NCBI GenBank assembly: GCA_026025075.1
Contig: JAPEUI010000077.1
Coordinates: 62,001 to 85,167, forward strand
Source of the DNA: Vezdaea acicularis
Lineage: Eukaryota
DNA: 23,167 bases
Direction: 5' to 3'
The notes beneath the pieces were generated by a model. That model was not told where the DNA came from and searched no databases. It was given only the letters and a program-made list of their open reading frames with translations. Positions 4,121-23,035 of this stretch are shown piece after piece; the stretch's first letter is position 1; every line of letters begins with the position of its first letter. Position numbers and translations under genes: made by a program.

Positions 4121-4397
4121 TCGAAGCGGTAGACAAGTTTGATGGCGCATAAATGGGGACTCCCCCATAGGTAAATGCTATAAACTCGAAGGCACTCAAA
4201 ATGGCTCTGCTGGGCCGGGGGCATAATCCAGAGCATGATGTCCCAACGAGGGTAAAGGCGCGGTACTATCGAGCTAATACGAAGAATGATTTATCATCGA
4301 TTACCGACGATCTCGGAACTGCTGGAACTAACGTACGCTGAGGGGTAAACGTGCCCACTAATCGCTCATGCGCCATCAATTTTGTCTACCGCTTCGA
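4121..4397 (-). mobile_element. Non-coding inverted-repeat element (MITE-like or structured element), copy 1
   Basis: The arms 4121-4150 TCGAAGCGGTAGACAAGTTTGATGGCGCAT and 4368-4397 ATGCGCCATCAATTTTGTCTACCGCTTCGA are reverse complements at 28/30 positions. The interior aligns along its length with 22607-23035. No clear TSD. Confidence 0.7.
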
Positions 4398-4665
4398 TTG
4401 CGTTTTCACAAAATAGAAGAGTAGAAATGACTTGGACGAAGTAGTTCGTAGCTGGTGGTTGGATAAACTTCGGGACAGGTGTGGATAGGGGGGAAATGAA
4501 GGCATGGGAAGAGCCGATCTGCCTTCTTTCGTGTTTTTTTGGGTTCAATACTTCTTTGAGAGACAATTGGTCTCAAAGTTTCTCATATTCTCTATTTTTT
4601 CGCTATTCACATTTTTGCTTGCTGCTCCTACTTATTGGTGGCCGCTCTCTTTCTTACTCACTCGA

Positions 4666-7004
4666 TTAGTTTGATAATCCCGTTAAGGTGGTATATTTGA
4701 TACTGATGACGTCTGACTTATGGACGATATACAGACTGCTGAGCGATCTCGCTGCTCCATGAATCAACGTCTCCTCCAAACTCTCCTTTAAGCTATTCAA
4801 GCTGACAACGTTTGCTCCTCCATCACATCTGATCGCTTCTTCAGAACGGTCAAGCCACTTCACTATCACCCCGTAACCTTCACTGGGAATCGGAAAATCT
4901 TCACTCCGGCTTGCACTCGCTGGAATTACCTCATGAGACGCTCTTTCAAACATTTCAAGGAGCAGAGTGAGATGGATATATTTTGTGCTTAATCTAACGA
5001 ATGGTCTGGCTGGCCTCAGCTCTCTCTTGACGGATTCGCCTCGAATAAGTATTTCATATCCCATTGGATCGCTTGTGGAATTTGGAGTACGTAGGGAAAG
5101 CACCGAGCCACTGGTGTTATCATCATCGTTTCGATGGATCAAGTTGTCTTGATCTCTGTCAATCTCTAGGTCGCTCACACGAGTTTTTGTCTCTAGAATG
5201 TTCTGAGGTAGCGGATTCGGTGGTGGTGTTGATTTTTCAACAAAGCTTGTTGATGGAGACAGAGTGCGATCAACTGGAAGCGGTATGTGCAATTGCACAC
5301 CCACCAGACTTCTCTGGCCTAGTTCATTTGTCATTTTTTCCCCTGCTACAGGTGTCTCTAAAGTTGGCAATGACGTTAGAGTCTGGGTATGGACCTCATC
5401 ATATTGAAGCTCTCTGATTCTGTTGTTGGTCTGGCTCAATATGGCAGGTGAGGGAGCTCTTAGCGTATCAACAATGTTGATGAGATTATGGGGGGCGCTG
5501 GATTGCTCAATCAAATGAGTAACGGATCCTGGAGCTTGTACGCTTGTGTTGGTGCTTAGGAGGGTTGATACCGGGGTCCATTCAGGGGGCTGGTTCAGCA
5601 CACTCTCATTAGGATGGTATCGCCGCATGTTCTGTCCCTGTCGAACAGTTTCGATAGTTGCTTTGAGAGTCCTGTTGAATTGTCGAACAGTTAAGGCTAG
5701 CTCCTTCTCGCGAGCTTGGCTTATCAGTGACGCTGTTATATTCGGGAGCGCCCACGCCTTATACAATACTCCATGCGTCCTTGCCATGTAGAACCTTCCG
5801 TGCAGCTTCACGAACAAATTACAGAGGAAGCAGGCGCTCTTGCCGGAACAAATCACTCTTGGCGGTATTTCTGCCGGATGGAGCTCGTAGAAAAAGATGA
5901 GCTGTATCTCAGCGTGGACTTTGACGTCATCATTCAGAAGAGCAAACGGCGGATGCAGTGCTACCACTTCTTCTATTGGTACAATTTCCGGCTGTGCGAC
6001 ATGGGTTTGGGTAGGCTGGTCCTTCTTCTGTGAGCTTAAGCAGCTGAATGAAGCTGTCTGTTGCAGATTTACTCCATCAACTTGGATTTTCTTGAATATT
6101 GCTAATTTTCGGGCAGCGACAATCAAGAAGAGGCACGCAGAGTGATATCGACCGAGCTTCCCAATGGATTGACGTAGAGTGGAGCCTGTCATTGGATCGA
6201 ATCCTTGATTTCCTGGGATCTCATTGAGAAGCGTCTCTAGGTCATCAATCAAGGCAAGGGAACAGGCACGTTTCACAAGATCTGCGAGAACTTGGTCAGC
6301 GGATCCTGATCGAGCCTCAGTCCTAGACATCGCTTCAAGTTGCCTGAACGCAGTCTGTAGTCCTTGGACATTAGCTTCGATCTCTGCTCGGCGACCTTCT
6401 GAGACAAGAGTATTCGACTTGCGGGCAAATCCGGTGGATACGGCTTTGGCAAATCTTTCAACGATTGGACCCTTGTTTAAAATCTTTAGGGTGCGCTTAG
6501 CATGCTTGGACCTGAGACGAGAGAGGATACGACCGCGATTGAGCTCGATTATATTCTTAAGTAAGGCATTCTCGTCTTGATCGGACTTGTGCACTGAAGG
6601 CATTAGTTTAATCCTCGTCATCAGGCATAAGACTCACTCCTACCTCGTAATGCTACTCGCTCTAGCGTTCTAGCAATACGCTTGAGACCGTCGGTGAACT
6701 TGCTAATGTTACCAGCATTGATGGCAACTCGTATGCTGGAGCCCTCTCCGTCTGAGCGTTCTTCGATGCATACTGCCACCACCCTTATGGCATCGTCACT
6801 TGAAGCTGAAATAAAAGCTAAGTTGTCGACAAGGTCGCGCTCTCGCTGGAAAGTCAATTGCCTTACCGGCTCTTGGGGTTGAGATGAAAGCTGGGGCAGA
6901 GGATTTTCCGTGGGCCTTTCGGGCTCCTTGCTAAGCCTCTCAAGCAGTGTAACATTCTCCCTTAATTGAATATACGTTTCTCTATCCCATATACACGTTG
7001 ACAT
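4666..7004 (-). CDS. OTT_1508-like nucleic acid/nucleotide deaminase domain protein (~762 aa, 2 exons)
   Basis: Zinc-binding motifs VHAEIQL (~5916) and ICSGKSACFLC (~5825). The N-terminal exon reads LTFQRERDLVDNLAFIS..VVAVCIEE..IRVAIN, typical of this fungal family as recalled. Intron 6643-6594 (alternative donor GTGAGT at 6637) has ACTAAT..TTCAG and joins the two ORFs in frame. Confidence 0.85.
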
Positions 7005-21200: not shown

Positions 21201-22118
21201 GGTCAATGGAGCGCGGCGGAGGAGATGCTAGTTCGTGTGCTGAAGCTGCAGAAGGAGGTTCTAGGGGAGGAACATCCCCACACTCTGGACAGCATGACGA
21301 GCCTGGCGGCGACCTACAACCAGCAAGGTCGATCGAGCGCGGCGGAAGAGATCGAGATACCGGTGCTGGAGCTGCGGAAGGAGGTCCTCGGGGAGAAGCA
21401 TCCCGACACTCTGGGCAGCATGGCGAGCCTGGCGTCGACCTACTGGCAGCAAGGTCGATCGAGCGCGGCGGAAGAGATCGATATACGGGTGCTGGAGCTG
21501 CGGAAGGAGGTCCTCGGGGAGAAGCATCCCGACACTCTACACAGCATGGCGAGCCTGGCATCGACCTACTGGCAGCAAGGTCGATCGACTGCGGCGGAAG
21601 AGATCCAGATACGGGTGCTGGAGCTGCGGAAGGAAGTCCTCGGGGAGAAGCATCCCGACACTCTACACAGCATGGCAAGCTTGGCGGCGACCTACTGGCA
21701 GCAAGGTCGATCGACTGCGGCGGAAGAGATCAAGATACGGGTGCTGGAGCTGCGGAAGGAGGTCCTTGGGGAGAAGCATCCCGACACTCTGGGCAGCATG
21801 GCGAGCCTGGCGGCGACCTACCACCAGCAAGGTCGATTGACTGCGGCGGAAGAGATCCAGATACGGGTGCTGGAGCTGCGGAAGGAGGTCCTTGGGGAGA
21901 AGCATCCCAACACTCTGCACAGCATGGCGAACCTGGCGACGACCTACCAGCAGCAAGGCCAGTCAAGCGCGGCGGAAGAGTTGCGGATGCGGGTGCTGGG
22001 GCTGCGAAAGGAGGTTCTAGGGGAGGAACATCCCGATACATTGCAGAGTATAAAGGATTTAGGAGTGACACAAGAAGCATGCAACGATACTGATGATTCT
22101 GAACCACCAACTCAATAA
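18213..22118 (+). CDS. NLR: SesB-like alpha/beta hydrolase + NB-ARC + TPR repeats (~1180 aa, 8 exons)
   Basis: Exons 18213-18215, 18271-18368, 18417-18657, 18702-18767, 18814-19179, 19229-19403, 19476-19617 and 19667-22118 total 3543 nt and stay in frame. Motifs: NIIAVHGLG, VNWLSDKEMLP..ARIWTFNYDS, IFIASSFGGLVVAQ, FLGSPLRG, Walker A LWGLGGSG|KTQ, Walker B LLILDNAD, LWTSR, IPLAIAQAAAF and YDMHKLVQ. The 5' exons are less certain. Confidence 0.9.
20862..22065 (+). repeat. Tandem array of 126-bp (42-aa) TPR units, 9 complete + 1 partial, high internal conservation
   Basis: The unit LELRKEVLGEKHPDTLxSMAxLAxTYxQQGRxxAAEEIxIRV is repeated with near-identical DNA (GTGCTGGAGCTGCGGAAGGAGGTCCTCGGGGAGAAGCATCCC). 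Confidence 0.97.
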
Positions 22119-22606
22119 CAGAGGCGATTTAGATAGCAGCTCTTTTGCTTCATCTTCACTTTCGTCTTCTGTAACTTCTACATCCGCTTCTGCTTTCGCT
22201 TCTCCTTATCAATGCGTATGTAGGCAAAGCGATGACATCTGAAGTTAACATAGTAAACCATCGTCACGAAGGAAGGAAGGTAGGAAATGAAAGAAACGAA
22301 AAAACGACCCTCAGCTCACCTACATAGAAAAAAATTGGATACCATCACCCCACAAGTCTAACTTCGAACAAGTGAGCAAGTGGGCTAACGAGCCGCCTAG
22401 AAAATCACATCCGTACTCCTGAACAGCCCTGTCTGTTTAAGAGATGTGCCTGGGAATATCACTCGTGCTTCGAAGGGTAGCTGGTGCCCTACCCACGTGC
22501 AACAGCTCCGTGATGCTTGGATGTGGTGGCTGTTGCCGATGATTGTGACGCTGATGGGATAAAGGGGGTGGGGCGGTCTCGAGGTCAAGGTTACCAAAAA
22601 CTACCA

Positions 22607-23035
22607 TCGAAGCGGTGGACAAAAATTGATGGCGCATTAGCGAATAGTGGGGTATGTTCACCCATCGACATGCGTTACTTTCAGCAGTTCTGAGATCGTT
22701 GGCAATCGATGATAAATATTCTTAGTATCAGCTCACTAGTACTACTCCTTGCTCTTGTTGGATTATTATACTCCAGGTTGTATCTACGGCCTGACAGGGC
22801 CGTTATGTGCTTTCGAGGTGAAGCTTTTGGTATGGGGGAACTCCTGTTCAATGCGCCATCAATTTTGTCCCGGACTGTCTTGTACCTTCAAGTGTGAAGC
22901 ATTTAGCTATGGGGGATCTCCCGTTTGATGCGCCCTCAATTTTGTCCGGGACAGTCTTGTGCCTTCGAGTATGAAGCTTTTAGGTATGGGGGAAACCCCC
23001 CTTTAATGGGCCATCAATTTTGCCCACCACTTCGC
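22607..23035 (+). mobile_element. Non-coding inverted-repeat element, copy 2 (expanded by internal triplication)
   Basis: Left arm TCGAAGCGGTGGACAAAAATTGATGGCGCAT (22607-22637); right arm ATGGGCCATCAATTTTGCCCACCACTTCGC (23006-23035). The interior matches the reverse complement of 4121-4397, e.g. CAGCAGTTCTGAGATCGTTGGCAATCGATGATAAAT vs CAGCAGTTCCGAGATCGTCGGTAATCGATGATAAAT. Confidence 0.7.
22797..23030 (+). repeat. Three diverged tandem copies of a ~77-bp unit
   Basis: TGTGCTTTCGAG..GAAGC..TATGGGGGA..ATGCGCCATCAATTTTG recurs, with ATGCGCC/ATGGGCC at 22851, 22928 and 23006. Confidence 0.9.

Follow-up and report, generated by a model that had tools for sequence, protein, structure and literature searches.

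Inverted repeats around defence-type genes in Vezdaea acicularis are very probably miniature derivatives of a Tc1-like transposon with variable 3-bp target site duplications

Introduction

A stretch of 23,167 nucleotides from Vezdaea acicularis (contig JAPEUI010000077.1, positions 62,001 to 85,167; C291:62001-85167 in our numbering, hereafter the window) contains two inverted copies of an unannotated repeat, and between them lies an 18-kb block with a deaminase gene, a DUF6601 gene and genes resembling NOD-like receptors (NLRs). The question raised by this locus is whether the repeats move, regulate or merely neighbour the genes which they enclose. An initial annotation of the window described them as a palindromic element bracketing a block of defence genes, and proposed three options: a MITE (miniature inverted-repeat transposable element) family, recombination or attachment sites mobilising immune gene cassettes, or a shared 3' cis element. 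We conclude, with a probability of about 0.9, that the repeats are a MITE of a Tc1-like transposon which leaves a variable duplication of 3 bp at its target site (target site duplication, TSD) and prefers a spaced target motif. It is based on the following: the elements have terminal inverted repeats (TIRs) in common and an interior derived from transposase sequence, their autonomous partners show a Tc1 fold, 3-bp TSDs are exact, and the target preference is a spaced palindrome.

Results

Alignment of the segments 4121-4397 and 22607-23035 (mean column identity 73%) agreed with the initial annotation in that the two copies, A and B, are homologous and inverted, with homology that extends no further than the arms and unrelated sequence beyond them. 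The arms had been given as 30 bp; in copy A they are 93% complementary over 30 nt, but one base in each arm belongs to the flank, and the element itself ends in CGAAG...CTTCG. It was because this flank base had been counted as arm that no TSD was recognized. Copy A is flanked by ATT/ATT and copy B by CAT/CAT, therefore the window copies are separate insertions. The size of about 280 bp holds for copy A (275 bp) but not for copy B, which is 427 bp long because a 77-bp subterminal unit is triplicated in it; the inner TIR part within each unit is a putative transposase-binding site. Tandem subterminal units recur in the copies C249, C262:116933, C294:31989 and C294:36736.

What had been called a palindromic element is a TIR element with a transposase-derived interior. 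In copy A a decayed piece of the P0002 transposase survives (55% identical, interrupted by one stop, E 2e-10), and the copy consists of nt 1-238 plus the last ~35 nt of a 1187-bp autonomous element, with 68% identity to the elements on C276 and C79. The MITE is a deletion derivative of a ~1.19-kb Tc1-like DD39E element.

The genome (18.9 Mb, 315 contigs) gave 60 BLAST matches with copy A as query, the long ones beyond copy A being 67-82% identical, while patterns of the arms gave 74 and 105 matches and the reversed controls 0. Compiled, these represent at least ~70 sites over 39 contigs, of which the sites on C54 and C18 were counted from protein matches only. Both arms were present in the sequence examined for 44 copies (the paired copies), and 20 arms were unpaired. 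Most paired copies are 239-317 bp long with 29-bp TIRs, and are non-coding save for a decayed transposase remnant; some are 98-100% identical at different sites. The copies are clustered, 32 of 70 having another less than 10 kb away (7% expected).

An exact 3-bp TSD was found in 22 of the 44 paired copies, against a mean of 1.6 and a maximum of 8 in 10,000 rounds of shuffled flanks. A 2-bp flank match was present in 3/44, a TSD of 4-10 bp in 0/44, and a flanking duplication, looked for up to 3 kb, in a single copy (36 bp). Six degenerate pairs found later contributed two more intact TSDs. The 22 TSDs comprise 17 different 3-mers, with A or T as the middle base in 20 of them, in place of the TA target duplication of Tc1 elements. 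Furthermore, the flanks are similar at positions -12 to -9 (C in 66, T in 59, A in 60 and R in 76 of 108 flanks), which gives the target consensus CTAR-N4-C-NWN-G-N4-YTAG; the logo is symmetric, a spaced palindrome.

Three elements of 1181-1187 bp, on C276, C312 and C79, have the same TIRs and are flanked by the TSDs GAG, GAT and AAA. They encode one type of protein with HTH_Tnp_Tc3_2 and DDE_3 domains; the C276 and C312 elements are 99.3% identical, and the C312 transposase has a premature stop. A profile of 16 transposase sequences had Sleeping Beauty as its best PDB match (5cr4, E 1.7e-39), and an AlphaFold model (predicted local distance difference test, pLDDT, 81.5) likewise had Sleeping Beauty as its best PDB match by fold (E 1.4e-11) and also matched Mos1. 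The spacing is DD39E in the three partners and 38 in the closest relatives, which differs from the DD34E of canonical Tc1. Among 27 homologous matches, the named ones include proteins of Pseudogymnoascus (49%) and Zymoseptoria tritici (37%). Two CxxC motifs are conserved in this transposase lineage (P0002 and P0003), CKAC in the linker and CNDC in the clamp-loop region, and three classical TA-type elements of the genome lack them; judged by sequence this pair may form a zinc clasp. In 112 open reading frames (ORFs) and 37 protein matches, a transposase with these ends turned up in the three 1.19-kb elements and nowhere else, and the unpaired arms were rejected as ends of larger autonomous elements. 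The dispersed copies, their TSDs and the autonomous TIR transposons with the same termini bear out the MITE option of the initial annotation, and they largely agree with what it had itself named as the mark of an ordinary MITE.

Two side observations concern the family as a whole. The copies C24:557-829 (L014) and C108:2591-2862 (L011) have ~28 bp of one flank in common, and this flank recurs, inverted, at the opposite end of the C24 copy, which suggests insertion into another small TIR element. Changes from the consensus in 40 paired copies are rich in transitions but without strong imbalance (C>T 300, G>A 289, A>G 261, T>C 228); since, in addition, intact transposase ORFs survive, repeat-induced point mutation looks weak or absent.

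The other 22 paired copies have no matching TSD, their flanking 3-mers differing at 1, 2 and 3 positions in 3, 13 and 6 cases, respectively. This distribution fits unrelated flanks (p 0.49), and point decay was rejected (p<1e-6 at all five rates). Both sorts of flank resemble the target: at least 3 of the 4 CTAR positions matched in 21/44 flanks of these broken copies and in 23/44 flanks of the intact ones, over a background of 8.5%. Mis-set termini were considered as a source of broken TSDs and rejected, since end shifts rescued 1/22, fewer than the mean of 2.6-4.2 obtained by shuffling. The most economical interpretation is that a broken copy combines two ends which the transposase had produced at different insertions, and which were joined later by recombination between copies or by aberrant transposition. 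The copy on C108 is identical to the intact copy on C99, yet its flanks are mismatched; the flanks of the MITE at C244:140122-140403 (L049) carry a perfect direct duplication of 36 bp in place of one of 3 bp; and C27:24656/28374 show an inversion-type TSD match. Across copies, 1 direct TSD match (the autonomous trio aside) was seen vs 1.0 expected, and 2 inversion-type matches vs 0.9 expected.

NLR-like genes were taken as the NPHP3_N and TPR_10 matches listed outside the window, and these lists are lower bounds. Enrichment of the element beside such genes, one of the expectations raised initially, was found: 10 of 38 lie within 5 kb of a copy, while 0 of 69 helicase genes do so (p 1.3e-5). 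Seen from the element, 15/68 copies lie within 5 kb of an NLR-like gene vs 2/44 other transposable elements (p 0.014; uniform expectation 2.3%), and after declustering 8/43 clusters do so (p 0.049). At 10 kb, however, the declustered excess over other transposable elements is lost (p 0.14), 53/68 copies lie more than 5 kb from any listed match, and many adjoin housekeeping genes. Other gene classes were too sparse for comparison (HET, 1 match; MFS, 9/121 candidates scored).

At C294:5000-41000 (L032-L035) an NLR array, composed of TPR, SesA-NACHT-WD40 and two patatin-TPR genes, one of the latter with an NB-ARC match, is interleaved with six MITE sites, five of them in one orientation. The C270:12062-17868 unit (L031:1563-7369) is 5.8 kb long and has two direct MITE copies enclosing a Clr5-ankyrin gene, with CAG/CAG as outer TSD; both outer arms carry the variant CGAAGGGG, which occurs in only these 2 of 108 arms. 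No second genome copy of its interior stretch (C270:14949-17599, 2.65 kb) was found except for a 200-bp repeat. The latter, at C270:17402-17594 (L031:6903-7095), is an unrelated repeat of ~200 bp with 9 other genome matches and adjoins the right-hand MITE copy.

Relatives of the transposon were also surveyed. Other Tc1-like elements of the same genome have duplications of TA (4), of 3 bp (2 more), of 5 bp (2; L071 on C274 and L072 on C135) and of 4 bp (1; L070 on C190). The survey further covered 80 metagenome loci, 25 of them without a TIR call. Relatives ending in CGA[AG]G had a 3-bp TSD in 4 of 7 cases, and a 5-bp TSD was found in at least 11 distinct loci, with ends mostly CA... or CTC.... 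Variable 5-bp TSDs flank L089-L092, L104, L125, L133, L134, L147, L159 and L160; together with L070-L072 these loci have ends CACGCG, CAAG, CAAC or CTC and fall in one clade. Orphan fungal MITEs with 5-bp TSDs may have their missing parents in this Tc1-like clade.

A quick tree with midpoint root had 48 rows, 42 for selected loci and 6 for proteins, and 20 of the rows were unlabelled. The 15 rows with 5-bp TSDs form one group (Shimodaira-Hasegawa-like approximate likelihood ratio test, SH-aLRT, 99), the 4 TA rows form another (SH-aLRT 88), and 9 rows with 3-bp TSDs are a grade between them; this clustering of TSD classes was matched by 0/200 shuffles. Most rows with 3-bp and 5-bp TSDs have the two CxxC motifs; of the four TA rows, one has them and three lack them.

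The features of the window are collected in Table 1. The initial annotation had placed the copies about 270 bp after the deaminase stop and about 490 bp after the TPR stop at 22118, and both distances stand. Its naming of the neighbours was largely supported by Pfam, the match to NB-ARC in the last gene being weak (E 0.039), and the domains found in the genes of the window are of fungal type. The bracket itself dissolves, since defence-type genes continue on the outside, where window 392-2182 shows a weak TPR match and a PAH domain and C291:55481-57936 holds an NPHP3_N-ankyrin gene.

Table 1. Elements and neighbouring genes in the window (neighbouring genes lie outside the elements)
Feature	Position	Strand	Remarks
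MITE copy A	4122..4396	+ (transposase sense)	275 bp
Left target duplication ATT, copy A	4119..4121	+	
Right target duplication ATT, copy A	4397..4399	+	
5' terminal inverted repeat, copy A	4122..4150	+	29 bp, starts CGAAG
3' terminal inverted repeat, copy A	4368..4396	-	
Decayed transposase N-terminal remnant, copy A	4210..4368	+	residues 49-101 of P0002
MITE copy B	22608..23034	- (transposase sense)	427 bp
Left target duplication CAT, copy B	22605..22607	+	
Right target duplication CAT, copy B	23035..23037	+	
77-bp subterminal unit, three in tandem, copy B	22825..23034	-	
OTT_1508-like deaminase ORF	4666..6633	-	Pfam
DUF6601 ORF	10292..11461	-	Pfam
NPHP3_N (NACHT-type) NLR-like gene, two adjoining ORFs	12798..17093	+	Pfam
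TPR-repeat NLR-like ORF	19524..22118	+	Pfam; NB-ARC weak

Four of 8 listed runs were compared over window 1500-20600, a range which takes in copy A but not copy B. Copy A is traversed, at the same site, by a contig of run X1 (3602-5920) and by one of run X3 (4024-4552), and no joint skipping copy A was found in the short contigs of the 4 runs compared. Loose contig ends at the termini of copy A point to further copies of the element in these samples.

Several observations were made on the genes themselves. The ORF at window 392-2185, with the PAH domain and the weak TPR match, contains a 156-bp tandem duplication (1165-1476), and contigs of three runs have additional TPR-like sequence beside position 1520. 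In run X1 the deaminase ORF is strongly diverged towards its N-terminus (window 5920-6440; joints 5920-6224 and 6258-6440) and the remainder is ~95% alike; this may be allelic diversification. A DUF7924 match at window 9784-10159 (-) is split over two reading frames by an intron or a frameshift and marks a gene that the initial annotation lacks. The low cover of run X6 at window 3411-4047 carries no interpretation.

Discussion

The following course of events can be proposed. Internal deletion of a ~1.19-kb Tc1-like transposon would have given rise to the non-autonomous MITE, and the partner transposase would bind the TIRs and move the copies in trans by cut-and-paste excision. The target would be attacked with a 3-nt stagger, not with the canonical 2-nt TA stagger, and the CTAR boxes 9-12 bp outside each end would be read by the transposase. 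The copies would persist preferentially in NLR-rich regions, and many may later have served as rearrangement junctions, either by ectopic recombination or by aberrant one-ended or sister-chromatid transposition. For this last step, with two transposase-made ends deriving from different insertions, the evidence of the broken copies tips the balance slightly in favour.

Some points weigh against this interpretation in whole or in part. Movement is read from the sequence, with no empty allele found and copy A present in X1 and X3, and the fit of the window copies themselves to the CTAR boxes is weak, with 1-2 matches out of 4 in each flank. TIR self-identity is lower in the broken than in the intact copies (0.75 vs 0.85), hence the former may simply be older, and they are not significantly nearer to NLRs (7/22 vs 3/19 intact, p 0.29). 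Additionally, an assembly fragmented into 315 contigs could chimerise near-identical copies such as those on C99 and C108. As for the relatives, a matching TSD is absent in 3/7 of those ending in CGA[AG]G, the TSD labels are choices made by eye among listed candidates, and the 5-bp group includes two possible TA rows along with one row that ends in CGAGG.

A MITE origin is compatible with a role of the family in recombination, in which its copies, as passive or selected substrates, would cause NLR genes to be duplicated, deleted and inverted. We regard this as a serious possibility that falls somewhat short of even odds, and a role of the family in NLR rearrangement or shuffling is plausible. 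Besides the enrichment near NLR-like genes, it agrees with the two patatin-TPR paralogs on C294 (82-89% alike), each of which lies between copies of the same orientation and whose homology stops 60-170 bp ahead of the right-hand copies, although the duplication runs beyond the left-hand copy. The 36-bp flanking duplication at C244:140122 and the inversion-type match at C27:24656/28374 point the same way, but inversion-type matches exceed chance little, and one of the two (C90) includes a copy whose own TSD is intact. Co-location with NLRs would likewise be expected from relaxed selection in dispensable regions.

It is very unlikely that the window copies mark off a composite transposon, or serve as attachment sites by which the 18-kb block was moved or inverted. 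They are inverted and enclose defence-type genes, and the C270 unit, with its direct copies, outer CAG/CAG and common arm variant, shows how such a structure might look. Composite transposition and recombinational capture would both give the C270 pattern, a single case; however, the outer TSD match there is one found where ~1.0 is expected by chance from 39 tests, and the interior stretch C270:14949-17599 has no second copy beyond the 200-bp repeat. In the window each copy has its own TSD, so that the outer flanks differ (ATT vs CAT) where a common outer TSD would mark a composite, defence-type genes continue beyond the bracket, and contigs of both X1 and X3 continue through copy A into either flank. 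Nothing indicates movement or inversion of the 18-kb block as a unit. The idea of mobilising sites is thus unsupported for this block, and survives in a weaker form for the family as a whole, where NLR enrichment, mismatched flanks in 22/44 copies and the C270 composite speak for it.

Still less likely is a 3' element, cis-regulatory or acting as RNA, that defence genes have in common. The window copies, C294:23598 and C294:36736 do lie ~0.3-0.6 kb downstream of a defence-type gene in antisense, but the 16 NLR-proximal sites within 5 kb have no fixed side (9 upstream, 7 downstream) or orientation (10 antisense, 6 sense), and TSDs, TIRs and transposase origin fully account for the element. PIF/Harbinger elements are distinguished by a TWA-type TSD and a second ORF beside the transposase. 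A 3-bp TSD is usually taken to mean a PIF/Harbinger or CACTA MITE (the TSD of PIF/Harbinger is 3 bp according to PMC4122938), which would also suit the subterminal repeats of copy B. Such an identity is hardly credible here, where the partners encode a single Tc1-type transposase from which the MITE interior derives, the ends are CGAAG and the TSDs are not restricted to TWA.

The MITE reading can be carried further. The transposon might represent an unnamed, widespread fungal Tc1 lineage in which TA was lost stepwise (from TA to variable 3 bp to 5 bp), possibly by way of the zinc clasp, with the MITE as a dispersed handle that duplicates, inverts and relocates NLR-type genes in this genome. 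As a whole we consider this rather unlikely; if true, the C294 array and the C270 composite would be examples, and the variable TSDs would record each exchange.

As in the Tc1 family (Sleeping Beauty; fungal impala and mimp, the latter reportedly moved by a Tc1-like transposase), short TIRs are combined here with a ~360-aa transposase having a Tc3-type helix-turn-helix, a DDE_3 domain and an SPDLSPIE motif, and with a MITE derivative. The variable 3-bp NWN TSD, the 21-bp spaced palindromic target, DD39E and the two CxxC motifs are unlike that family. Tc4, TBE1 and Zator, from nematodes, ciliates and other organisms, are ITm-related elements with a 3-bp stagger and fixed TNA, ANT or TWA targets; compared by description only, the present family differs from them in its variable 3-mer and in its enzyme, a fungal Tc1 relative. 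Guest carries a 3-bp flanking direct repeat and has longer forms of ~1.3 kb, and we know of no target motif or rearranged copies in it. This Neurospora crassa element is a fungal Tc1/mariner-type MITE (PMC3227409, PMC2851567), and by analogy it may belong to the same lineage, which would then be partly known. The TA TSD unites the Tc1/mariner group (PMC7325037, PMC13728883), and impala has the spacing DD37E (PMC7325037). Since our element fails the group-defining TA test, it is filed as a Tc1-like variant.

No description of a fungal Tc1 with 3-bp or 5-bp TSDs was found in the full-text literature, Repbase, most subscription journals and supplements being outside the search, and the available parts of PMC5751038, PMC4122938, PMC5014426 and bioRxiv 2022.12.06.519325 contain nothing on a non-TA fungal Tc1. 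The TA duplication is used as the diagnostic mark of Tc1/mariner; a fungal Tc1 lineage with variable 3-bp and 5-bp duplications would mean that Harbinger, CACTA or unknown is probably the wrong label for many orphan fungal MITEs. It should be emphasized that these elements are natural variants for studying how a DDE transposase sets the length of its stagger and reads a long spaced target.

Across genomes the correlation of NLRs with transposable elements is reported to be only weak (PMC12258605). In Podospora, NLRs with highly conserved repeats have flanks rich in transposable elements (23.4% vs 2.4%), and the authors proposed that these NLRs were duplicated by ectopic recombination of the flanking elements (PMC13449251). 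Unlike that association, the present one involves one MITE family, whose variable TSDs are barcodes of flank exchange. Because each insertion carries a near-unique 3-bp tag together with the target motif, the hypothesis that fungal NLRs are shuffled by transposable elements (PMC13449251) becomes testable by comparison of strains.

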